A stretch of DNA of 64,000 bases. Source: Candidatus Falkowbacteria bacterium RIFOXYA2_FULL_47_19 (GTDB lineage: Bacteria > Patescibacteriota > Patescibacteriia > Patescibacteriales > UBA12075). Made by a program: the position numbers and the translations under genes. Below are positions 6,284-62,538 of the stretch, piece by piece; within the stretch, counting starts at the first letter, position 1; every line of letters begins with the position of its first letter. The stretch lies in assembly GCA_001780275.1 (NCBI GenBank), contig MFGB01000016.1, positions 92,161 to 156,160 of the forward strand. Direction: 5' to 3'. The notes under the pieces were generated by a model. That model was not told the DNA's origin. It did no database searches and worked only from the letters and a program-made list of their open reading frames with translations.

Positions 6284-6325
6284 ATAGGCATTAGGTATTA
6301 GGCATTAGGCATTAGGCATTAGGCA
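6284..6325. repeat. Tandem heptamer array (TTAGGCA) x6
   Basis: ataggca ttaggta ttaggca x4. It ends 11 bp before the ATG at 6337, just downstream of a TGgTATAAT extended -10 at 6271-6279. Confidence 0.85.
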
Positions 6326-6336
6326 TTTTAATTTTT

Positions 6337-16025: not shown

Positions 16026-17465
16026 ATGAACAAAATCCTATCCATCTTTAAAAGGAAAGATCTTTTAAAGGTTCTTCTCGTCGGCGTCGGCATTCTGGCC
16101 GGCGGCGGATTTTTTTATGCCGTAAAGGCCGATCAGATCCAATATACCTATTATTCCGATGCGGACGGCGATGGCTATGGAGTTACCTCAACCACCACCT
16201 TGGCCACGGAACCGCCCGCCGGCTATGCCCGTAACGGCGGCGATTGCGCCGATACCGTAGCCGCGATAAATCCCGGCGCGGCCGAAGTCTGCGACAATAT
16301 CGACAACGATTGCGACGGATATGTGGATGAAAATGTCCTAATCACCTATTACCGCGATTTTGACGGCGACGGTTACGGATTAACCTCGAGCACCACCCAG
16401 GCCTGCTCCGTTCCGTCCGGATATGCAACGAATCAAACGGATTGCAACGACAGCAATGCGGATATAAAACCGGGCGCGGCCGAAGCCTGCGACAATATCG
16501 ATAACGACTGCGACGGTTCGATCGACGAGAACTGCGATCTTAATACTTACTACCGGGATGCCGATAACGATACGTACGGCAATCCCGGCCAGGCCACGAC
16601 AAGCTACGGCAGCGCGCCCTCAGGATACGTCAGTAATAATAATGATTGCAATGACACGAAAGCGAATATCCATCCGAACGCGGCCGAAGCCTGCGACAAT
16701 ATCGATAACGACTGCGACGGTTCGATCGACGAGTACTGTGCCAGTATGAAAACATACTACCGCGATGCCGATGGGGATACATACGGCAATCCTTCCGTCT
16801 CCACCACGAGCTTAGAGGCTCCCTCCGGATACGTGAACAACGATCGGGACTGCAACGATACCAAGGGCAGCATCAGGCCGGGCGTGAGAGAGATCTGCGA
16901 CGGCATCGATAATAACTGCGACGGAACGGTGGACGAGAACATGGCATCGCGTACTTATTATTTCGATAACGACGCCGACGGTTTCGGTGGTACCGCCACC
17001 ACCAGCGACTGCCGGCTTCCATTGGGATACGTAACGAACAATAAGGATTGCAACGATTCGAACCGTTTGATATACCCGGGAGCCGTTGAAGTCAAGGATA
17101 ACGTCGATAATGACTGCGACGGAAAAACCGACGAAGATGAAGCGGCGAACGCCTCGGAGATCTGCCCATATTTAGGCGATAACCGCCTCGGTACTTTCGT
17201 GAGCTGCGTGAATCATTACCTTAACAAACTCAAGGCGGAAGGCGAACTCGAGAATCCGGAGAAAGCCAGGATCTTAAAGGGATTGATCCAGAAGATCAAA
17301 GAGGTAATAAAGACGGAGAAAGTTGAAGATAAGGCCGAAAAAAAAGAGATAAAAAAGGAAATTAAGGATAAAAAAGAGGAAATAAGCGGGATAAGGGGAG
17401 GGATCAAGGATTTGAAAGAAAAATTTTCCGGCAGTTTTAAAAAGAAAGGGTCCTGCGGAGAATAG
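16026..17465 (+). CDS. Secreted/membrane-anchored protein with six tandem MopE-like Cys-rich putative metal-binding repeats and a Lys/Glu-rich C-terminus
   Basis: An N-terminal signal/anchor is followed by 6 repeats of YYRDADGDGYG...DCND...I.PGA.E.CDNIDNDCDG.IDE (about 68 aa each). An exact 54-bp DNA repeat occurs at 16476-16529 and 16680-16733. Confidence 0.7.
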   Translation: MNKILSIFKRKDLLKVLLVGVGILAGGGFFYAVKADQIQYTYYSDADGDGYGVTSTTTLATEPPAGYARNGGDCADTVAAINPGAAEVCDNIDNDCDGYVDENVLITYYRDFDGDGYGLTSSTTQACSVPSGYATNQTDCNDSNADIKPGAAEACDNIDNDCDGSIDENCDLNTYYRDADNDTYGNPGQATTSYGSAPSGYVSNNNDCNDTKANIHPNAAEACDNIDNDCDGSIDEYCASMKTYYRDADGDTYGNPSVSTTSLEAPSGYVNNDRDCNDTKGSIRPGVREICDGIDNNCDGTVDENMASRTYYFDNDADGFGGTATTSDCRLPLGYVTNNKDCNDSNRLIYPGAVEVKDNVDNDCDGKTDEDEAANASEICPYLGDNRLGTFVSCVNHYLNKLKAEGELENPEKARILKGLIQKIKEVIKTEKVEDKAEKKEIKKEIKDKKEEISGIRGGIKDLKEKFSGSFKKKGSCGE

Positions 17466-22233: not shown

Positions 22234-22276
22234 TTCATTTTCTTTATATAGGTTGTTTGATATAAATATAAAAACG

Positions 22277-25082: not shown

Positions 25083-25206
25083 AACATAAATAAATTTTTA
25101 TAAACTTTAATTTATTACGGCTGGGTAGTAACCCCGCAAAATTTGAGGCGCAGGGATCGCGTTTCGATCCTTCTCAAATTTGACGTGGGGGCCGTAGGCA
25201 AGAAAC

Positions 25207-26397
25207 ATGGCAGCAGAAAAATTCGAAAGATCAAAACCTCATGTCAACATCGGCACCATCGGCCACGTTGACCACGGTAAAACCACCTTAACGGCGGCCA
25301 TTCTCAAGGTAATGGCTTCGAAGGGTTTTAAGGCTTCCACCAAGAACGTCGACCAGATCGATGCCGCTCCGGAAGAAAAAGCCCGCGGTATCACGATTGC
25401 GACCGCTCACGTCGAATATGAATCGGAAAAACGCCATTATGCCCACGTAGATTGTCCCGGACACGCTGATTACGTCAAAAATATGATCACCGGCGCGGCG
25501 CAGATGGATGGAGCTATCTTGGTCGTAGCCGCTACCGACGGCCCGATGCCGCAGACCCGGGAGCATATCCTCCTGGCCCGCCAGGTAGGCGTACCGAATA
25601 TCGTTGTTTTCCTTAATAAGTGCGACATGGTGGAAGACAAGGAATTGATCGATCTCGTAGAGGAAGAGATCCGCGATCTTCTTAAAAAATACGAATTTGA
25701 CGGCGATAACATAAAAATAGTCAGGGGTTCCGCCTTAAAGGCCCTGGAGAATCCGGCAAGCGAAGACGGCGAAGCCGTTTTCAACCTGATCAAAGCGGTT
25801 GATGAAACTTTCCCGGAACCGATTCGCGACATAGAACATCCGTACCTTATGCCGATCGAAGACGTGTTTTCGATCGAAGGGCGCGGCACGGTCGTAACCG
25901 GCAGGATCGAACGCGGTATAGTCAAGATCAATGAAGAGGTGGAGATCATCGGTTTGGGAGAAACCAGGAAAACCGTAGTTACCGGCATCGAGATGTTCAA
26001 TAAGCAATTGGACGAAGGCCGGGCCGGAGATAACGCCGGCATTCTTCTCCGCGGCATAAAGAAAAATGAAGTGGAAAGAGGCCAGGTGCTAGCCAAGCCG
26101 GGTAGCGTTACCCCGCACACCGAATTCGAGGCCCAGGTTTATATACTTTCCAAGGAAGAAGGCGGACGCCACAAGCCGTTTTTCAAGGGCTATAAGCCGC
26201 AGTTCTATATCCGCACCACGGACGTTACCGGAGAAGTGGAATTGCCGGAAGGCACTGAGATGGTCATGCCGGGCGATACGATTAATTTCAAGGTAAAGTT
26301 GATCAGTCCGGTGGCTCTTGAAGAAAAACAGAGATTCGCCATTCGCGAAGGCGGCCGGACCGTAGGCGCCGGAGCCGTTGTTAAGATCATTAAGTAA
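25207..26397 (+). CDS. tuf: Elongation factor Tu
   Basis: [21 protein letters not shown] and NKCD motifs. The product is 396 aa. Confidence 0.97.
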
Positions 26398-26516
26398 AGA
26401 TTAGATACAGGGTCCCTCTTTTTAAGAGGGGGATCCGCACCTAATTTTTAATTATTGGTTATTAGTCAATTAGTTAAACGGACAATAATTGTTAACTTAA
26501 CTAAAACGCACATAAC

Positions 26517-26891
26517 ATGCCAGAAGACAAAGTTAAATCAATAAGCAAAAAGGGAGAATCCGAAGCCGACGGCGGCCATAACGAATCCAAGCAGAAGATC
26601 CGCATCAAAATAAAGGCTTTCGACCACAAGATAATCGATCAGTCGACCAAGACCATTATCGATACCGCCACCAGGAGCGGCGCCCAGGTATTCGGTCCGA
26701 TCCCGCTTCCGACCACGAAGAAGAAATATACGGTAAACCGTTCGACCTTCGTCCATAAGAATGCCCGCGACCAATATGAAATGAGGACGCATAAGCGGCT
26801 TATAGATATAATCGAACCGACCGCCAAGACCATCGAAGATCTGACCAACTTAGGCTTACCGGCCGGAGTGGACGTTGAAATAAAAATGTAA
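26517..26891 (+). CDS. rpsJ: 30S ribosomal protein S10 with about 25-aa N-terminal extension
   Basis: [19 protein letters not shown]...RTHKRLIDI. Confidence 0.9.
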
Positions 26892-27141
26892 GAGTTATCA
26901 TAATTTGTATTTTTATATATTATAGATAATAGTGATCGTTGCGGTAACTCCCGAACACAAACGACCGGGAAAGTGCCGTAATAAGAATTATTATCGACAG
27001 GAGGAAATAAACCAACATAAGAAACACGAACTTAAATTTCGGTAAAACGATTTTTTGTGCTAAATAAATTTAGCAAGTTCGCTGGTTTTGTTGCAAGACC
27101 AGTTTTTGTTTTAAAAAATAGGGAATTTTCAATATATATTT

Positions 27142-27927
27142 ATGAAATTCATCATAGGCAAAAAAATAGATATGACCCAGATTTGGCAAGGAGAAGAGGC
27201 CAAGGCGGTAACGCGCGTAAAAGCCGGTCCATGTCCGGTGGTTCAGGTAAAGCGTCGTGATAAGGACGGATATGAAGCCGTGCAGCTCGGATTTGGCGAA
27301 AGGAAAGAAAAGAATATTAAAAAGCCGCAAAAGAACCATGCGCGGGGATTGGGCAATTTAAGGAATTTGCGGGAATTTAATTTATCGCGCCCCAAGAAAA
27401 ATGACGGTTTGGAATTAGATCTCAAACGGGGGGATATTATCGGAGTTGACACTTTCGCGGCCGGGGATATCGTCCAGGTTACCGGCACTTCCAAGGGAAA
27501 AGGATTTCAGGGCGTCGTCAAAAGGCACGGTTTTCACGGGCACAATACTACTCACGGCACGAAAGATCAGGTGCGCCACTCCGGTTCGATCAGCGCCGGC
27601 GGCGTACAGCATGTTTTTAAAGGTATGAGGATGAGCGGCCGGATGGGCGGCGACCAGGTAACGGTTAAAAATCTGCGGATCATAGAAGTCGATGCGGCCA
27701 ACGGTATATTATCGATCGAGGGAGCCATTCCCGGAGCGAGGAACGGCTTGGTACTGATACAGGGAAACGGAAAGCTGGAAATAAGAAAAAAGGAAGAAGC
27801 TAAAGAAACAAAAAAAGATAACATTGATAATAATACGGATGAAGCCGTCGCGTCGGTAACGGAGGAAAAAGAGTCTCCGGCTGGCGAAAAAGCGGAAGCG
27901 GACGATAAAAAAGAGGATAAAAAGTAA
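27142..27927 (+). CDS. rplC: 50S ribosomal protein L3 with Lys/Glu-rich C-terminal tail
   Basis: The L3 core (GKKIDMTQIW...GTSKGKGFQGVVKRHGF) plus an extension of about 55 aa. Confidence 0.9.
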   Translation: MKFIIGKKIDMTQIWQGEEAKAVTRVKAGPCPVVQVKRRDKDGYEAVQLGFGERKEKNIKKPQKNHARGLGNLRNLREFNLSRPKKNDGLELDLKRGDIIGVDTFAAGDIVQVTGTSKGKGFQGVVKRHGFHGHNTTHGTKDQVRHSGSISAGGVQHVFKGMRMSGRMGGDQVTVKNLRIIEVDAANGILSIEGAIPGARNGLVLIQGNGKLEIRKKEEAKETKKDNIDNNTDEAVASVTEEKESPAGEKAEADDKKEDKK

Positions 27928-27932
27928 CCCAT

Positions 27933-28646
27933 ATGTCAATCGAAGTAAAAATATACAACCAAAAAGCGGAAGAAACCGGAAATCTGACCCTTAAGGACAA
28001 GGTATTCGGGGTCAAGCTGAACGAAACTCTGGTGCATCAGGCGGCGGTAACCCAAGCGGCCAATAACCGGCAGGTTTTAGCCCACACCAAAACGAGGGCG
28101 GAAGTAAGAGGCGGCGGCAAAAAACCCTGGAAACAGAAAGGCACGGGCCGCGCGCGGGCGGGGTCTTCGCGTTCTCCGATCTGGATCGGCGGCGGTGTTA
28201 CTTTCGGTCCGAGAAAAGACAGGAATTTCAAGAGGAATATCAATAAGAAAATGAGCCGGAAAGCCGTATTGATGGTTTTGTCGGACAAGGTAAAAAGCGA
28301 TAATCTTATCATACTGGATGAACTGTCCGTTCCGGAATACAAGACCAGGGTCATGGATGATATGTTCAAGAATCTTGAAAATAAAAGAAAGTTATTGGAA
28401 ATCGTAGCGAGCGAAAAGAACCCGGATAAAAAGAAAGAGAAAAATCCGGTTCGAAAATCGGTTAAACGCAGCCTTTTGGTCGTAAACTGCGGGAAAGACG
28501 AAAAAGCAAAATACTCGATTCGGAACATTAAAGGCATAAAAATTATCAATTTGGAAAATATGAATATCCTTGACCTGCTGACCTTCAGAGATCTCATGAT
28601 GACCAGGGAAGGTATTAAAAAATTAGAAGAAAAATATTCATCGTAG
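27933..28646 (+). CDS. rplD: 50S ribosomal protein L4 with C-terminal extension
   Basis: L4 core KTRAEVRGGGKKPWKQKGTGRAR. Confidence 0.9.
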   Translation: MSIEVKIYNQKAEETGNLTLKDKVFGVKLNETLVHQAAVTQAANNRQVLAHTKTRAEVRGGGKKPWKQKGTGRARAGSSRSPIWIGGGVTFGPRKDRNFKRNINKKMSRKAVLMVLSDKVKSDNLIILDELSVPEYKTRVMDDMFKNLENKRKLLEIVASEKNPDKKKEKNPVRKSVKRSLLVVNCGKDEKAKYSIRNIKGIKIINLENMNILDLLTFRDLMMTREGIKKLEEKYSS

Positions 28647-28675
28647 ATTTCAATGTATTTTTAGACTCAATTCAT

Positions 28676-29191
28676 ATGGCATTGTTCAAATGGAATAAAA
28701 AATATCCCGATAAAAAAGAAGAAAAACCGTCCAAGACAAGCGTCGTGAAACCGGCCGGTTCCGGTAATGGCGTGAAAGCGAAAAAAAGCGCGGAGACCAA
28801 AGAACCGGCTAAGGCCAGCATGAAAGATCTGTACGGCGATAAAGAGGCTGCCGGAGCGGAGGAAAGTAAAACCGGGACCAAGACCGATAAAAAAACAAGA
28901 AAATACGGATCAGCTTACCGGGTGATCATAAGACCTTTGATCACGGAAAAAGCCGCTAATTTGGGAGCGGTCAATAAATACGCTTTCGTGGTAAGCGACC
29001 GGGCGAACAAGATCGAGGTTGAGAAAGCGGTCAATGAACTTTACGGCATCAAACCGACAAGCGTGAACATGCTTAAAGTTCTTGGCAAGAAAACCCGCCG
29101 CGGCCGGGTAACCGGTCGGCGCAAAAACTGGAAAAAGGCGATAGTGACGCTGCCCAAGGGCAAGAGTATCAATATTTATGAAGGAGTATAG
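28676..29191 (+). CDS. rplW: 50S ribosomal protein L23 with about 75-aa Lys-rich N-terminal extension
   Basis: The C-terminal 95 aa match L23 (YRVIIRPLITEKAANL...). The true start may be downstream. Confidence 0.8.
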   Translation: MALFKWNKKYPDKKEEKPSKTSVVKPAGSGNGVKAKKSAETKEPAKASMKDLYGDKEAAGAEESKTGTKTDKKTRKYGSAYRVIIRPLITEKAANLGAVNKYAFVVSDRANKIEVEKAVNELYGIKPTSVNMLKVLGKKTRRGRVTGRRKNWKKAIVTLPKGKSINIYEGV

Positions 29192-29282
29192 TGATTTACG
29201 ATTTGCGGTTGAATATTTCAAATAAGCCAATCCAAAAAAAAGTAGTAATACGCGATTTAATTGACGATTTGCGGTTGATATA

Positions 29283-29317
29283 CAATCGGCAATCGCCAAT
29301 CGGCAATCGCCAATCCA
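29283..29317. repeat. Tandem heptamer array CAATCGG/CAATCGC (14-mer x2.5) immediately upstream of rplB
   Basis: caatcgg caatcgc caatcgg caatcgc caatcca. It ends 3 nt before the rplB ATG at 29321. The spacer also holds 17-bp direct repeats (acgatttgcggttga at 29198 and 29263) and 13-bp direct repeats (gccaatccaaaaa). Confidence 0.85.
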
Positions 29318-29320
29318 AAA

Positions 29321-30163
29321 ATGGGAATAAAAAAAGTAAAACCAATCACCGCGGGAAGGCGCCAGGCCAGGTTCGACGATTTTTCGGATATTACCAGGAC
29401 GAAACCGGAGAAAAAATTGATAATGATAAAAAAGAAGACTGGAGGAAGGAATGCCCAAGGCAAGATTACCGTCAGACACCGGGGGGGCGGAGCCAGACGC
29501 TACATCAGGTTAGTTGATTATAAGAGGGATAAATTCGACATTCCGGCCCGTGTCGCTTCGATAGAATATGACCCCAATCGCGGCGGTCGGATATCGCTAC
29601 TTAACTACGCGGATGGGGAAAAAAGATATATTATCTCTCCGATCGGCCTTACAATCGGAGAAACGGTCATAAGCTCAAAAAATCAGATAGAGATAAAACG
29701 GGGAAACGCTTTGCCGATCATGTATATTCCCGCGGGTATCGCGGTTTATAATATTGAATTGACGCCCGGCCGCGGCGGACAGATAGCCAGAGGCGCCGGC
29801 AACGAAGTTTACGTCATGGGTGTCGAGGGTAAATACGCGCAGATAAAGATGCCTTCCGGCGAAATTCGGCTCATAAAAAAAGAATGTTTATGCACGATCG
29901 GCCAGGTCAGCAACGTCGATAAACGCCACATAAAACTTGGAAGCGCCGGCCGGAATCGTCATCGCGGCATTCGTCCGACGGTCAGGGGCACGGCTATGAA
30001 TCCGGTCGATCATCCGCACGGCGGCGGCGAAGGCAACCAGTCGATCGGCTTGAAACATCCGAAAACGCCTTGGGGCAAACCCGCCTTGGGAGTGAAAACG
30101 CGAAACAAGAACAAGGCTTCCACCAAGCTTATAATCAAAAGAAGGGGAAGAAAGCAAAGATAA
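29321..30163 (+). CDS. rplB: 50S ribosomal protein L2
   Basis: Canonical L2 sequence including the GGGEG region. Confidence 0.95.
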
Positions 30164-30194
30164 GAAGATTTAGCAAATAAAGAAATCAACCAAT

Positions 30195-30482
30195 ATGCCA
30201 AGAAGTTTAAAAAAAGGGCCATACGTAAATGAGCGGTTGCTCAAAAAGATCAAAGATCTTAAACCCGGCGATAAAACCGTTATTAAGGTTTGGGATCGTT
30301 CCTGCACCATCACTCCGGAAATGGTCGGATTTACGATCGGCGTCCATAATGGCAGAAAGCACGAACCGGTTTATGTGGTCGAGAATATGGTCGGCCACAA
30401 ACTGGGCGAGTTCGCTCCGACCCGCAAATTCTTGAGTCATGGCGGTAAAATGGCGAAAACGCAGGCGAAGGGAGCCAAATAG
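30195..30482 (+). CDS. rpsS: 30S ribosomal protein S19
   Basis: [10 protein letters not shown]...[11 protein letters not shown]. Confidence 0.95.
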
Positions 30483-30510
30483 CAATGATATATAAAATAA
30501 GGTAATTCAT

Positions 30511-31101
30511 ATGGAAGTAAAAGCGACAGCAAAACATATTAAAATGTCTCCCCGTAAAATGCGGCTGGTTCTGGGCGTCGTCCGCGGCCTCAAAGTGGAA
30601 GAAGCTTTGACGCAGCTTAAGTTCATAAAAAAGCTGGCGGCGGAACCGGTGATCAAGCTCATCAACTCGGCGGTAGCGAATGCGGAACATAATTTCGAAT
30701 TGGAAAAGAGCAATCTATACATAAAAGAATTAAGAGCAGACCAGGGCCCGACGCTTAAACGCTGGAAACCGAGGGCGCGGGGACGGGCTACTCCGATAAT
30801 GAAGAGAACGAATCACGTGAGCCTTATATTGAGCGAAGTGGTGGAAAGCGGTAAGACCGGATCGAAAAAACAGAAGATCGAAGCTCCCGTTAAACTCGGC
30901 CAGCTGCCGAAAGAAGATAAGGGCGTAAAGATCGAAGATAAGAAGAAAACCAAGGAAAAATCCGCTCCGGCCGAAACCGGCAGCGAAAAGAATAAAAAGA
31001 TCGTAGATGTGCGGGAAGAGGGAAAGGGCGGACACGTTAAGCTTGAAGGAAAAGGACGCGCCGGTTTCATGAAGAAGATGTTCCAGAGAAAAAGCGGCTA
31101 A
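30511..31101 (+). CDS. rplV: 50S ribosomal protein L22 with Lys/Glu-rich C-terminal extension
   Basis: An L22 core of about 110 aa, then a charged tail of about 85 aa. Confidence 0.9.
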   Translation: MEVKATAKHIKMSPRKMRLVLGVVRGLKVEEALTQLKFIKKLAAEPVIKLINSAVANAEHNFELEKSNLYIKELRADQGPTLKRWKPRARGRATPIMKRTNHVSLILSEVVESGKTGSKKQKIEAPVKLGQLPKEDKGVKIEDKKKTKEKSAPAETGSEKNKKIVDVREEGKGGHVKLEGKGRAGFMKKMFQRKSG

Positions 31102-31132
31102 CGTTTATTAAATCAATAAATCAAATAAAAAC

Positions 31133-31843
31133 ATGGGAAAAAAAGTAAACCCCAAAGTATTCAGGATCGGCACTACCAGGACTTGGCACTCCAAATGGTT
31201 CGGCGTGGGAAAAACTTACGCGAAGAACGTTCGTGAGGATGTCTTGGTCAGAAAATTCCTCATTAAAAAATTGCAGGAAGCCGGAGTCGATCGGGTAGAA
31301 ATTGAAAGACATACCAACAAGATCAGCGTCGGTGTTTATACGGCCAAACCGGGCATCATTATCGGCCGGGGAGGGTCGGGCGTCGATGATCTAAAGAAGC
31401 AGATACATGATAAATTTTTAAAGACTTTCAAATTGGGCGATATAAATCTTAATATCCACGAAGTCGATCGGCCGAACCTTTCCGCCCAGATTTCCGTTCA
31501 ATCCATGATCATCGATATAGAGAAGAGGATGCCTTTCAGGCGGGTAATGAAACAGGCTATTAACCGCATCGAACGGGCCGGAGCTTTAGGCGTCAAGGTC
31601 ATTATCGGCGGACGCTTGAACGGAGCCGAGATCGCCCGAACCGAAATGCTCGTTTCCGGAAAAATACCGCTGCACACCCTGCGGGCCGATATTGATTATG
31701 CCCGCGGAGCGGCTCATACCACCTACGGAGCTATCGGGATCAAGACTTGGATATATAAAGGCGATAAATTCGAAAAAGAAGAAGAGAAAATGGGGGAAGT
31801 GGTGGGAAAAGAACCGAGAATCAAGCGCCACCGCTATAATTAA
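31133..31843 (+). CDS. rpsC: 30S ribosomal protein S3
   Basis: GKKVNPKVFRIG... KH domain followed by the S3 C-terminal domain. Confidence 0.95.
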   Translation: MGKKVNPKVFRIGTTRTWHSKWFGVGKTYAKNVREDVLVRKFLIKKLQEAGVDRVEIERHTNKISVGVYTAKPGIIIGRGGSGVDDLKKQIHDKFLKTFKLGDINLNIHEVDRPNLSAQISVQSMIIDIEKRMPFRRVMKQAINRIERAGALGVKVIIGGRLNGAEIARTEMLVSGKIPLHTLRADIDYARGAAHTTYGAIGIKTWIYKGDKFEKEEEKMGEVVGKEPRIKRHRYN

Positions 31844-31887
31844 TCCTTGAGCTTAATCTACAATTATTCAAAAGAACAGATTTCCAT

Positions 31888-32295
31888 ATGTTAATGCCAA
31901 AAAAGACAAAATTTAGGAAGTCCCATAAGAGCAAAAGAGGCGGCAAAGCCAGCCGTCTTATCAAGGTCAGCTTCGGACAGTTCGGTCTTAAAGCCATGGA
32001 GGCGCATTGGCTGTCTTCCAGGCAGATCGAGGCCGCTCGGCGGGTAATGACCAAATACACCAAGCGCGGCGGCAAGATCTGGATCAGGATATTCCCGGAC
32101 CGGTCCGTGACAAAAAAAGGCGGCGAGATCCCGATGGGCAAAGGAAAGGGGCCGGTAGACCACTACATAGCGGCGGTTAAACCCGGCATGGTCCTTTTCG
32201 AAATGGACGGCATAGCTTTGGACCAGGCCAAAGAGGCCATGAATCTAGCGGCCCACAAACTGCCGATAAAATGCAAATTTATCGTAAAACATTAA
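31888..32295 (+). CDS. rplP: 50S ribosomal protein L16
   Basis: MLMPKKTKFRKSHK... Confidence 0.95.
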   Translation: MLMPKKTKFRKSHKSKRGGKASRLIKVSFGQFGLKAMEAHWLSSRQIEAARRVMTKYTKRGGKIWIRIFPDRSVTKKGGEIPMGKGKGPVDHYIAAVKPGMVLFEMDGIALDQAKEAMNLAAHKLPIKCKFIVKH

Positions 32296-32332
32296 TCTAG
32301 TTTTTAAAATTAATCAATTTAACATAAATAAG

Positions 32333-32590
32333 ATGGAGTTGAAAGAATTAAAAAAGAAAACCATATCCGATTTGCATAAAATTCTCGCGGAATCAAGGGA
32401 TAAGCTCCGGGATCTCCGGTTTAAAGACGCGAATAAGCAGCTTAAGAACGTACGCGAGATCAGGTCGGTACGGCGGGTGATCGCCTGGGCCCTTATGCTC
32501 ATAAGCGGCGATAAAAACGGGAAAGAAGGAAAAAAGACCGAGGAAGCCAAGGAAGATAAAACCAAAGAAAAAGAAGCGGATAAGAAGTAA
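32333..32590 (+). CDS. rpmC: 50S ribosomal protein L29 with Lys/Glu-rich tail
   Basis: ELKELKKKTISDLHKILAESRDKLRDLRFK. Confidence 0.85.
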   Translation: MELKELKKKTISDLHKILAESRDKLRDLRFKDANKQLKNVREIRSVRRVIAWALMLISGDKNGKEGKKTEEAKEDKTKEKEADKK

Positions 32591-32611
32591 AAAATAATAG
32601 ATTATAACAAT

Positions 32612-32893
32612 ATGAACGATAAAAAAGCGGAGAAACAAGTTAATAAAGCTATCGTTAAAAAACCTGTAACAAAAAAGAAGTTTAGCGGCGTGGTAGTGAG
32701 CGCGAAGATGAACAAGACGATAGTGGTCAGGATCGATCGGGTAAAAATCCATCCAAAATACAAAAAAAGATATACGGTCAGCAAAAAATACAAGGTTCAT
32801 GACGAAAAAAACCAGTTCAAGGAAGATGCTAAAGTTACTTTCATCGAATGCCGACCCTTATCCAAGGACAAAAGATGGAGAGTGGTTTACTAA
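32612..32893 (+). CDS. rpsQ: 30S ribosomal protein S17
   Basis: KKFSGVVVSAKMNKTIVVRIDR... Confidence 0.9.
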   Translation: MNDKKAEKQVNKAIVKKPVTKKKFSGVVVSAKMNKTIVVRIDRVKIHPKYKKRYTVSKKYKVHDEKNQFKEDAKVTFIECRPLSKDKRWRVVY

Positions 32894-32952
32894 TTGGCCG
32901 GGGAGAGACATAAATCTTAAAAAGATCAAAAATTTTCTTACATCCAATTAAT

Positions 32953-33324
32953 ATGATACAAGTACAGACATACGTAAAAGTAGCCGATAATTCCGGCGCC
33001 CGGATGGTGCAGTGCATCAAGGTTTTGGGCGGTTATAAAAAGCGCTATGCCCGGATCGGGGATATTTTTACCGCTGCCGTAAAAGTAGCGACGCCGCACG
33101 CGCCCATTAAGAAAGGCGACGTAGTACGGGCGGTGCTGGTTCGCACCAGGAAAGAGATCCGGCGGAAAGACGGTTCTTATATCCGGTTTGACGAGAATGC
33201 CTGCGTAGTGATCGATAAGGAAAAGAAAGAACCGAAAGGCACGAGAATCTTCGGGCCGATAGCGCGGGAAGTAAGAAAGGCCGGATTCGTGAAGATCGCT
33301 TCGTTGGCTCCTGAAGTGTTGTAA
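32953..33324 (+). CDS. rplN: 50S ribosomal protein L14
   Basis: [17 protein letters not shown]... Confidence 0.95.
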
Positions 33325-33380
33325 TTTACAATTGTCGATCGCTGATTGACGATTGAAATAAATTGAAGAAAATAAATAAT

Positions 33381-33415
33381 CGTTATGCGTTACGCGTTAT
33401 GCGTTACGCGTTATG
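33381..33415. repeat. Tandem heptamer array CGTTATG/CGTTACG (14-mer x2.5) upstream of rplX
   Basis: cgttatg cgttacg cgttatg cgttacg cgttatg. It ends 15 nt before the rplX ATG at 33431, overlapping the SD region. Confidence 0.85.
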
Positions 33416-35010: not shown

Positions 35011-35045
35011 TAGGTTATAGGGATTAGGGAATAGGGATTAGGATA
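35011..35045. repeat. Tandem G-rich heptamer array TAGGGAT/TAGGGAA between rpsH and rplF, with a partially complementary C-rich segment downstream (35055-35076)
   Basis: taggtta tagggat tagggaa tagggat taggata. The downstream cctctaatccccaaccccctaa is an imperfect reverse complement, so the two can form a long hairpin. Three G3 tracts sit on 4-nt loops. Confidence 0.8.
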
Positions 35046-35084
35046 CGTTTTAACCTCTAATCCCCAACCCCCTAAGCAACACAT

Positions 35085-35624: not shown

Positions 35625-35645
35625 AAAAGATCGTTGTAATTTAAA

Positions 35646-35668
35646 ATTTAGTTTAGGATTTAGAATTT
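35646..35668. repeat. Degenerate heptamer array (ATTTAGT TTAGGAT TTAGAAT) abutting the start codon of the TlyA-like gene
   Basis: Three 7-nt units with a TTAG(G) core. The ATG at 35670 follows directly. Confidence 0.55.
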
Positions 35669-35669
35669 A

Positions 35670-36266
35670 ATGGAGAGGGATAGCGAAAAAAATGATTACC
35701 AATATGTTGGTCGCGGGGCTTTAAAGCTGAAACACGCCTTAGAACATTTCCGTGTTGACGTCAGGGATAAAACGGCCGCCGACCTGGGGTGTTCGACCGG
35801 TGGATTTACGGAAGTGCTCCTGGAAAAAGGGGCCCGTAAAGTATACGCGGTCGATACGGCTTACGGGCAGCTGGACTGGAAACTTCGGAAAGATGATCGG
35901 GTGGCAGTAATGGAAAGGACGAACGCGCTTCACGCGGAACTGGAAGAAAAGGTCGATCTGGTGGTCATAGACGCCGGCTGGACCGCGCAAAAATTGATCA
36001 TACCGAAAGCCATGGAGCTCCTTAAGGCGCAAGGAGACATAATTTCCCTTGTTAAGCCGCATTACGAAGCTAAGCGCTACGGTCTGGTTTTTAAGGGAAA
36101 AAAATTAACAGCGGAAGAAAGCAGGCGGATACTCGAATCTGTTTTAGAAGATCTGGAAAAAGCTGGTTTTAAAATCAATCTATATACCACCTCTCCGGTT
36201 ACCGGGGAAAAAGGGAAAAATATCGAATATCTTGTATGGATCAACAAAAAAGAAAAAAAACAATAA
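35670..36266 (+). CDS. TlyA-family rRNA 2'-O-methyltransferase (FtsJ-like fold) lacking the N-terminal S4 domain; embedded in the spc operon
   Basis: GRGALKLKHALEHFRVDVRDKTAADLGCSTGGFTEVLLEKGARKVYAVDTAYGQLDWKLRKDDRV matches the TlyA SAM-binding core. Confidence 0.7.
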   Translation: MERDSEKNDYQYVGRGALKLKHALEHFRVDVRDKTAADLGCSTGGFTEVLLEKGARKVYAVDTAYGQLDWKLRKDDRVAVMERTNALHAELEEKVDLVVIDAGWTAQKLIIPKAMELLKAQGDIISLVKPHYEAKRYGLVFKGKKLTAEESRRILESVLEDLEKAGFKINLYTTSPVTGEKGKNIEYLVWINKKEKKQ

Positions 36267-39199: not shown

Positions 39200-39336
39200 A
39201 TAGTAATCATATAAAAAACTTTTTTATAATTTACCGTAGATACTGCCATTAGCGGAAGCCAGCGGAGAGTGTTAGTATTTTTTTAAAAAGTATTGTATAA
39301 TAAATTTACATTAGAATTTATAATTTATAAAAATTT

Positions 39337-54701: not shown

Positions 54702-54730
54702 ATTTGTTTTTGCGATTATTAAATTTTTTT

Positions 54731-54756
54731 GTCATTCCCGCGCAAGCGGGAATGAC
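54731..54756. promoter_or_regulatory. Perfect 11-bp stem hairpin with GCAA (GNRA) tetraloop
   Basis: gtcattcccgc-gcaa-gcgggaatgac. T-run upstream, A-rich downstream. Confidence 0.7.
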
Positions 54757-55674: not shown

Positions 55675-55730
55675 AAAATGCAAAATGCAAATCTCAAAAT
55701 GCAAAATGACAATGTAAAATTTAAAATGAA
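55675..55730. repeat. Tandem heptamer array AAAATGC (21-mer x about 2.5) upstream of the flavodoxin gene
   Basis: aaaatgc aaaatgc aaatctc aaaatgc aaaatga caatgta aaattta aaatgaa. It runs into the ATG codons at 55726 and 55735. Confidence 0.8.
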
Positions 55731-61503: not shown

Positions 61504-61636
61504 TTGTCTAGGAATTTCTATTTTTAGTTAATTTCGTGATCATTCGTTATTTTCGTGTTTTCGGCTTAAAAAAGCTAAACACGAAAGCAACGAAAAAATA
61601 CGAAATAAACAAAAAAAGCCGAAGGTTTATTTTATT

Positions 61637-62421: not shown

Positions 62422-62538
62422 TAATTACAAATACACCAATCAAAACACAAATTCACAAATGCCGCACTAACATGTCCGTTGAATATTTGTGATTTAATTC
62501 GTGAATTCGTGATCTTATTGTGAATTCGTAATCCATTT

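Follow-up and report, generated by a model that had tools for sequence, protein, structure and literature searches.

Repetitive extragenic palindromic (REP) sequences are dispersed families with a conserved sequence of about 35 nt, and the short tandemly repeated repetitive (STRR) heptamers of cyanobacteria, which Mazel and colleagues are said to have described in 1990, reportedly form heptanucleotide tandem arrays in non-coding DNA. Direct repeats of the heptamer TAACTGA occur in Beggiatoaceae, cyanobacteria and Bacteroidetes, and a role in translational regulation has been proposed for them (MacGregor 2015, PMC4679880). Deletion of the 'heptamer repeats' found near start codons in Nostoc alters the expression of a reporter (bioRxiv 10.1101/2022.06.06.494920). 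Here we analyse an element of related design in a contig of Candidatus Falkowbacteria (Patescibacteria), of which a stretch of 64,000 nt, hereafter the window, carries the str, S10 and spc ribosomal-protein operons. The element is the spacer between rplW and rplB, the S10-operon genes for ribosomal proteins L23 and L2, and it is an intercistronic heptamer-repeat palindrome, made of two forward blocks of GATTKRC-type units and of further units in reverse-complement orientation.

Among described systems the TAACTGA arrays (PMC4679880) come closest to the spacer, and the two have much in common: units of 7 nt stand in tandem, in two to six or more copies, in intergenic DNA, and the arrays end a few nucleotides from a start codon; the downstream genes have no Shine-Dalgarno motif; internal junctions of ribosomal-protein operons are occupied; and the distribution across phyla is patchy. 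Indels in 7-nt steps may also be listed as a shared property, though the 14 assemblies of our locus show none. At the junction between rsgA and holB some Anaerolineales carry an NNACTGA array and others GATTKRC units. The differences lie in the unit, GATTKRC or CAATCGS here, in the host, a Patescibacteria genome, and in the pairing of forward and reverse arrays as a predicted hairpin, whereas 169 direct sets and a single indirect repeat are given for BOGUAY (PMC4679880). With tandem 7-nt units in an intergenic array that ends near a start codon lacking a Shine-Dalgarno motif, the spacer belongs to the heptanucleotide-array class, and with units CAATCGS and GATTKRC it does not belong to the TAACTGA family. 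The STRR and Nostoc arrays are likewise non-coding heptanucleotide tandem arrays near start codons or promoters, with other units and in another phylum; there, many copies of a few fixed heptamers are found per genome, whereas here each spacer tends to have a unit of its own. The heptanucleotide long simple sequence repeats (LSSRs) of Mrazek et al. 2007, as they are presented in PMC4679880, are likewise short arrays in tandem that favour units of 7 nt, and period 7 dominates here too; the concept as presented there covers direct arrays only, with neither inverted pairs that fill intercistronic gaps nor conservation above the synonymous rate.

We propose that the spacer is an intercistronic heptamer palindrome that was built by slippage and acts in cis on the mRNA of the S10 operon, and we assign this reading a probability of roughly 55%. 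That it is a member of the heptamer-array class, and neither mobile nor a known regulator, is very probable, while a function in cis at the RNA level is put forward tentatively, as somewhat less than an even bet.

Results

Architecture of the rplW-rplB spacer

The spacer and its borders comprise the following features.

29189-29191, + strand: stop codon TAG of rplW (L23), with a second in-frame stop, TGA, directly after it
29192-29320, + strand: complete rplW-rplB intercistronic spacer, 129 nt, equal to 18 heptamer registers plus 3 nt
29192-29212, + strand: forward heptamer block 1, TGATTTA CGATTTG CGGTTGA, which holds copy 1 of a 19-mer (29194-29212) and copy 1 of a 15-mer (29198-29212)
29226-29238, + strand: copy 1 of a 13-mer, GCCAATCCAAAAA, comprising one reverse-type unit (CCAATCC) and the beginning of an A-run
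29253-29278, + strand: forward heptamer block 2, CGATTTA (ATTGA) CGATTTG CGGTTGA, which holds copy 2 of the 19-mer (29260-29278) and copy 2 of the 15-mer (29264-29278)
29283-29317, + strand: reverse-orientation heptamer array, CAATCGG CAATCGC CAATCGG CAATCGC CAATCCA
29309-29321, + strand: copy 2 of the 13-mer, GCCAATCCAAAAA, at the end of the array and reaching into the A of the rplB ATG
29321-29323, + strand: start codon ATG of rplB (L2), in A-rich surroundings without a Shine-Dalgarno motif (CCAATCCAAAAATGGGAATAAAAAAAG)

Counted in a 7-nt register from the stop codon, the spacer reads TGATTTA CGATTTG CGGTTGA, then ATATTTC AAATAAG, CCAATCC, and an A-run with a linker; it continues with CGATTTA (ATTGA) CGATTTG CGGTTGA, TATA, the array CAATCGG CAATCGC CAATCGG CAATCGC CAATCCA, and AAA before the ATG. 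About seven units are of the forward GATTKRC type and about six are reverse complements, namely those of the CAATCGS array and of the GCCAATCC motif; the reverse complement of the 3' array is GATTGSC, so that it shares its family with the forward units. The forward units correspond to the two 17-bp repeats that a first-pass annotation of the window had placed at 29198 and 29263. The repeat is real and consists of an exact 15-mer, ACGATTTGCGGTTGA, whose second copy begins one position further on (29198-29212 and 29264-29278); with its 5' extension it becomes the 19-mer ATTKACGATTTGCGGTTGA at 29194 and 29260. The same shift of one position applies to the second copy of the 13-bp repeat, annotated at 29226 and 29308 and found at 29309-29321, and the alternating heptamer array at 29283-29317 was correctly described: Tandem Repeats Finder gives 4.7 copies at period 7 (29283-29315/17) and, at period 14, 2.4 copies with 100% match, which is perfect alternation. 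The three layers of repetition seen by the first-pass annotation in a spacer of 130 bp are all real and non-random, yet they amount to one layer in 129 nt, because all of them consist of heptamers from one family that occur in both orientations.

The longest exact direct repeat in the spacer measures 19 nt, against 13 nt or less in 5000 dinucleotide shuffles, and its same-base autocorrelation reaches 0.475 at lag 7 and 0.47 at lag 14, with about 0.25 at other lags. Its GC content is 36%, compared with 48% for the window. Fourteen independent assemblies, from ENA, JGI, Logan and NCBI, carry the sequence without a single difference, which led us to reject an assembly artefact as the source of the repeats, and copy-number changes in 7-nt steps between strains were absent from all 14. 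In GCA_001778165.1 the L2 protein and the spacer are both identical to those of the window.

Three nucleotides separate the array from the rplB ATG, and the spacer contains neither GGAG nor GAGG. The absence of a Shine-Dalgarno motif before rplB had been pointed out before and is true, yet initiation without such a motif is the norm in this genome: GGAG or GAGG lies upstream in 8 of 66 crude gene calls of the window and of no gene in the S10 operon. Several pipelines begin rplB 34 codons late (246 aa), and these late calls are probably due to the absent motif. Gene callers also disagree at rplW, rplC and rplV. The L23 encoded by rplW (28676-29191) has 171 aa, of which about 85, with many Lys, Ala and Glu residues, form an N-terminal extension, and is 89 aa long in the NCBI record; L3 (rplC, 27142-27927) and L22 (rplV, 30511-31101) have long charged C-terminal tails. 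An upstream in-frame extension of rplB, or a small open reading frame (ORF), was rejected as an account of the spacer, since the frame followed backwards from 29321 runs into a TGA at 29276-29278 without an ATG, GTG or TTG on the way. A 108-aa ORF that begins with GTG (29191-29517) overlaps the spacer out of frame with both rplW and rplB.

Heptamer arrays at other junctions of the window

The window holds other arrays of heptamers or of 8-9-mers, several of them as inverted pairs and mostly within 10 nt of a start codon. TAGGCAT is repeated six times at 6285-6327, ending 9 nt before a start codon; TAGGGAT units face CCCTAA units at 35011-35084; and further intergenic arrays lie at 35638-35669, 39311-39330, 55675-55728, 61540-61600 and 62422-62538. 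Each array has its own unit (TAGGCAT, TAGGGAT/CCCTAA, AATTTAG, TTATAAT, AAAATGC, TTTCGTG/CACGAAA or ACAAAT/GAATTCGTGA). The rplN-rplX spacer (33325-33415), with a z of -3.05 for its whole fold, is a second composite heptamer spacer. At 33329-33355 it contains a 12-bp hairpin, CAATTGTCGATC-GCT-GATTGACGATTG, composed of CAATTGT/CGATC and GATTGAC units, the same GATTKRC family as between rplW and rplB, and at 33381-33415 a perfect period-14 array of CGTTATG/CGTTACG, in 2.5 copies, reaches into the rplX start.

Comparison with a sister species

A sister species (JAZDLN010000028.1) has about 94-95% nucleotide identity with the window and is collinear with it over 20 kb. The rplW-rplB junction is the sole S10-operon junction of at least 45 nt in both genomes, and here the 129 nt of the window stand against 51 unrelated nucleotides in the sister, with 39 identical columns out of 129. 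In the sister spacer there are remnants that resemble GATT units and a hairpin of the form CCTGCC...GCAGG; a reverse array is absent. Databases hold no stepwise intermediates between the two, the 90% cluster of L23 consisting of two members with the next relative at 61% identity. Two other spacers alone changed in large steps between these genomes, rplF-ftsJ (45 vs 18 nt) and rpsG-fusA, where the sister is about 100 nt longer (L147 3471-3578, against 22239-22247 in the window) and contains irregular GCGGAT repeats.

Twenty-three spacers were compared in all, and the 14 that had changed little were pooled. These are 95.1% identical (893 of 939 positions) against 84.1% at four-fold degenerate sites (n = 1526), which indicates that the pooled spacers are under purifying selection. 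The heptamer hairpin spacers are conserved at 71 of 75 positions (rpsH-rplF), 81 of 88 (rplN-rplX) and 116 of 119 (tuf-rpsJ). The stem of the rplN-rplX hairpin has two substitutions, A-U to G-U and U-G to C-G, and at both positions the sense RNA can still pair. Our results show that these arrays are gained, lost and swapped in large steps and that, while present, they change more slowly than synonymous sites.

Long spacers in the lineage

The survey of the lineage covered 80 species representatives, the rplW-rplB gap being available from 79. The first-pass annotation had assumed that the genes for L23 and L2 are usually a few nucleotides apart; in this lineage the gap has a median of 33 nt and a range of 4-241 nt, it is 40 nt or longer in 32 of 79 relatives, and only 2 of 79 exceed the window. 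The spacer sequences at this junction are unrelated to that of the window in all 79, and CGATT/AATCG arrays of at least three units were found in three relatives only (L005, L012 and L018), in each of them between rplW and rplB; the three are not monophyletic. All seven junctions of the S10 operon behave alike. Long spacers typically have tandem 6-9-mers, a loop and then tandem reverse-complement units, and among the 151 S10-operon spacers of 45-260 nt, 42% have a fold with z < -2 and 32% with z < -3. Of these 151, 87 contain tandem arrays, where shuffled sequences give about 30 of 151, and the dominant period is 7 (53 of 129 arrays). Junctions of at least 45 nt account for 58% in the clade of the window vs 12% in the largest other clade (clade B). 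Across the class, a G-rich 5' half facing a C-rich 3' half is a weak tendency (83 vs 56, p = 0.03). In this genome, and in the Falkowbacteria clade to which it belongs, arrays of 7-nt units, often as inverted pairs, thus occupy gaps between a stop codon and the next start. A small GC-rich hairpin, CCTGCC-loop-GGCAGG, recurs in relatives L001, L004, L005 and L018.

The same heptamer family in other phyla

An exact scan of metagenome contigs with the 19-mer returned 52 stretches that reduce to 41 distinct loci; these matches exclude the window's own locus and are silent on further copies in the source genome. In 26 of the 41 loci the flanks contain more units of the family, the expectation being about 0.2 per locus. 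A layout of stop-[GATTKRC]n-loop-[GYMAATC]n-ATG is present in loci L114, L118 and L134, and the ATG is sometimes formed by the last unit. According to the flanking proteins, L117 comes from Anaerolineales (Chloroflexota) and L134 from Verrucomicrobiae/Limisphaerales. The GATTKRC family thus fills stop-to-start gaps in Anaerolineales and Verrucomicrobia too. The first-pass annotation would have been refuted by a spacer with no other copies of its unit and no conservation in relatives, and this is half the case: the exact unit is indeed unique in the window, but the heptamer family recurs at 33329-33355, in L005, L012 and L018, in Chloroflexi and in Verrucomicrobia.

The rsgA-holB junction of Anaerolineales exists in three states, a GATTKRC array of 68-89 nt, a 69-nt array of NNACTGA units, which resemble TAACTGA, and no spacer at all. 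The arrays at this junction (loci L148-L152, L117 and L120) have about ten units of one kind or the other, and are similar in length (68-89 nt) though their unit sequences are unrelated; in one species the two genes overlap. In Verrucomicrobia the region upstream of hisG carries a hairpin of GATTKRC units, one of CAGAATT/AATTCTG units, or neither. In L108 (and in L116, L130, L132, L140 and L145) tRNA genes flank a GATTKRC/GCAAATC heptamer hairpin within a dense array that gives 12 tRNA matches over 1.9 kb, and a shuffling of the heptamer units is evident between samples.

These distributions bear on whether the array does anything at all. Replication slippage with a preference for 7 nt, together with template switching, could inflate a spacer whose sequence is unconstrained, since initiation here needs no Shine-Dalgarno motif, and the array would then be a tolerated and functionless by-product of mutation. 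Such an origin without function would suit an element that is absent or replaced in the sister, the short spacers of 5-20 nt that are common in relatives, the patchy and non-monophyletic distribution, and orthologous junctions that carry different heptamer families or none (rsgA-holB in Anaerolineales, the upstream region of hisG in Verrucomicrobia). It would also suit the symmetry of the class by strand and position and the statement, attributed in PMC4679880 to Mrazek 2007, that heptanucleotide repeats are the commonest class of long simple sequence repeats in prokaryotes and arise by polymerase slippage. However, heptamer spacers that are retained between the window and the sister are 93-95% identical, against 84% at four-fold sites, no copy-number polymorphism is seen across the 14 assemblies, and slippage from random seeds does not predict that one heptamer family should occupy the stop-to-ATG position in three phyla. 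We think a pure by-product unlikely, though by no means negligible.

The recurrence of a strict 7-nt unit is also what would be expected of a row of binding sites for a protein that engages single-stranded nucleic acid with one domain per 7 nt, for example a cold-shock or S1-like protein with an oligonucleotide-binding (OB) fold. Where genes have no Shine-Dalgarno motif, such a protein might bring in ribosomes or license them, with the inverted arm as a built-in competitor. Arrays abut the ATG in genomes poor in such motifs, the GATTKRC family is present in three phyla, and forward-only arrays cannot work through structure. The idea has been proposed for the TAACTGA arrays, and CspB of Bacillus subtilis reportedly binds direct repeats of a heptamer, each heptamer taking up one protein (PMC4679880); in Nostoc, too, the expression of a reporter is altered by heptamer repeats close to start codons (bioRxiv 10.1101/2022.06.06.494920). 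However, the many unrelated heptamers within one genome argue against a single sequence-specific binder, and both orientations adjoin start codons. A protein array seems improbable.

Predicted folding of the spacer

A hairpin is predicted in the second module of the spacer:

29260-29300, + strand: predicted module-2 hairpin of 15 bp, with helices 29260-63/29297-300, 29265-69/29291-95 and 29272-77/29283-88 and the loop ATATA

This predicted hairpin has an energy of -17.9 kcal/mol (z = -2.44), and 3 of 200 shuffles were equally stable. CGAUUUGCGGUUG is complementary to CAAUCGCCAAUCG at 12 of 13 positions, one of the pairs being G-U. In the predicted full-length fold, block 1 pairs with the distal units of the array and CAAUCCAAAAAUG is left unpaired, so that a nested structure would begin at the rplW stop codon and close about 10 nt short of the rplB AUG. 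Its predicted 5' arm covers 29191-29212 and its 3' arm extends as far as 29310, 10 nt before the AUG, the z for the whole spacer being only -1.2. In this respect the spacer is reminiscent of REP sequences, of bacterial interspersed mosaic elements (BIMEs) and of translational-coupling hairpins, which are also imperfect palindromes between co-transcribed cistrons, and because its predicted hairpin spans the interval from a stop codon to the next start, it may plausibly, by analogy, influence coupling or the stability of the mRNA. It differs from REP and BIME sequences in being built from heptamers and in having no dispersed copies in 64 kb.

Mobile elements and known regulators

The first-pass annotation had described the spacer as looking like an inserted modular element and its 17-bp unit as a possible dispersed family of miniature repeats. 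An insertion of a miniature mobile element into the S10 operon, whether a miniature inverted-repeat transposable element (MITE) or a REP- or Correia-like sequence, would be consistent with the spacer being the only break in 2962 + 3840 aligned bases of collinear sequence between window and sister, with its imperfect inverted arms and with a 13-nt direct repeat that flanks 70 nt. True MITE-like elements also occur at such junctions in relatives, where palindromes that measure about 110-170 nt and terminate in sequences like TGTCTTTGCGAGGAG...CTCCTCGCAAAGACA are seen at four S10-operon junctions of L074 (about 170 nt) and at rplB-rpsS of L072. Yet no other copy of the 15-mer, the 14-mer or the 13-mer was found within the 64 kb at up to two mismatches, and a MITE within the window was rejected on this basis. 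The spacer has no terminal inverted repeats with a target-site duplication and no exact inverted repeat of 6 nt or more. What lies between the two copies of the 13-mer is no unit with terminal inverted repeats, the arms being heptamer arrays, and one copy of the 19-mer falls outside the segment between the two 13-mers. The interior has the character of heptamer slippage, with no unique core between terminal repeats, and the metagenome matches are heptamer arrays, not copies of the 129-nt sequence. The element is modular, repeat-built, lineage-specific and swapped for an unrelated 51-nt spacer in the sister, but that it arrived as a mobile or miniature insertion is very improbable.

Its location in a ribosomal-protein operon, directly 5' of rplB, and the stable hairpin predicted there could suggest an autoregulatory leader bound by L2 or L23, another structured riboregulator, or an internal promoter or terminator. 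Rfam, however, produced no gathering-score match in the whole window and, when relaxed to E values of up to 10 for 29100-29420, chance-level matches only (E of at least 0.16). The same arrays in seven metagenome loci were also searched with Rfam, which detected only tRNAs and an FMN riboswitch, elsewhere in the loci. A scan of 26000-33000 found inside 29192-29320 neither sigma-70-like -35/-10 hexamers at a spacing of 16-18 nt nor a terminator with a GC-rich stem and T-run, and ARAGORN found no tRNA or tmRNA in the window. The spacer sequence also differs in the sister although L23 and L2 are 98-99% identical and would be expected to need the same binding site. A regulator of any of these kinds is scarcely credible. 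From what the 64 kb show, we regard the spacer as neither mobile nor a promoter, terminator, riboswitch or leader bound by a ribosomal protein.

Other features of the window

The rpsJ-rplC spacer (26892-27141) is, at 250 nt, unusually long for the S10 operon and is identical to the sister at 243 of 250 positions (84% at four-fold sites). It contains a terminator-like hairpin at 27081-27103, followed by a T-run, matches no Rfam family, and may be an attenuator or leader that is sited after rpsJ instead of before it. The 124-nt spacer 5' of tuf (25083-25206), identical to the sister at 118 of 125 positions, has nested complementary segments (GGGGTTAC.../...GTGGGGG and GGATCGCGTTTCGATCC) and resembles a structured RNA; neither Rfam nor ARAGORN finds anything in it. 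At 54712-54752 there is a perfect palindrome, TTTGTCATTCCCGCGCAAGCGGGAATGACAAA, like the GTCATTCCCGC...GCGGGAATGAC hairpins in spacers of relatives L011, L038 and L049. A gene for an FtsJ-type methyltransferase (35670-36266; PF01728 in the sister's annotation) lies in the spc operon between rplF and rplR and overlaps rplR by 31 nt. A tandem repeat of 204 nt at 16440-16834 (1.9 copies, 79% match), inside the coding region 16026-17465, is rich in Cys and Asp and looks like a repeated protein domain.

Discussion

If the rplW-rplB spacer is a slippage-built palindrome that acts on its own mRNA, its heptamers would have arisen by slipped-strand duplication, a module of the form [19-mer ... 13-mer] would have been duplicated as a segment, inverted copying would have contributed as well, and the later turnover of the spacer would proceed by wholesale replacement and not by point change. 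The spacer would be transcribed within the S10-operon mRNA, where both forward blocks may pair with the reverse array into a nested hairpin that would start at the rplW stop codon and stop some 10 nt ahead of the rplB AUG. With its 5' arm at the stop codon, and so inside the footprint of the terminating ribosome, the hairpin would have to be melted on that side by the ribosome, and this could free the G-poor 3' array and the A-rich start region for initiation at rplB without a Shine-Dalgarno motif. The outcome would be a device for translational coupling and spacing, and possibly a hairpin for mRNA processing or stability as well.

Several observations speak against such a function. For the class as a whole, the sense strand does not fold more stably than the antisense strand (73 vs 70, p = 0.52), and arrays have no bias to the start over the stop codon, with median gaps of 11 and 10 nt. 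The fold of the whole spacer is no better than those of shuffles (z = -1.2 to -1.3), and module 1, that is block 1 with copy 1 of the 13-mer, would form a weak hairpin (-6 kcal/mol, z = -0.7). Forward-only arrays without a hairpin partner exist in L117 and L148, and one array lies between tRNA genes (L108). The argument from constraint is drawn from other spacers, that of rplW-rplB having no orthologous comparator. Finally, the sister and many relatives have spacers of 5-51 nt at this junction, so the element must be dispensable for the expression of rplB.

A bolder and improbable extension, which combines the cross-phylum distribution with the idea of a protein array, is that GATTKRC/CAATCGS arrays are not slippage debris and instead form a conserved class of cis-elements that stands in for the Shine-Dalgarno interaction. 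A Csp- or S1-like OB-fold protein would dock with one domain on every 7-nt unit and hand the mRNA over to the ribosome, and paired inverted arrays would make this hand-off depend on the translation of the upstream cistron, thereby setting the stoichiometry of ribosomal proteins in genomes without Shine-Dalgarno motifs. The hosts of such a class would be Patescibacteria, Chloroflexota and Verrucomicrobiota and, if TAACTGA is included, also Beggiatoaceae, cyanobacteria and Bacteroidetes.

Heptamer arrays of this kind have been little studied; besides the lineage of the window, at least two further phyla contain them. What is new here is the GATTKRC/CAATCGS family of units, their systematic inverted pairing into hairpins, their hosts (Patescibacteria, Anaerolineales and Verrucomicrobia) and the evidence of constraint, retained arrays evolving about three times more slowly than synonymous sites. 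Orthologous junctions with one heptamer family, with another or with no spacer are already present in the data as test cases. If the arrays are mere products of slippage, they would be markers of mutational dynamics in reduced genomes and fast-evolving markers of strains, as well as a trap for gene callers, as the late rplB starts at this locus illustrate. If they are functional, the unexplained TAACTGA phenomenon would be extended to a new family of units and to three more phyla, and the arrays would represent an undescribed way in which bacteria largely devoid of Shine-Dalgarno motifs, those of the Candidate Phyla Radiation among them, organise the translation of their polycistronic ribosomal-protein mRNAs.

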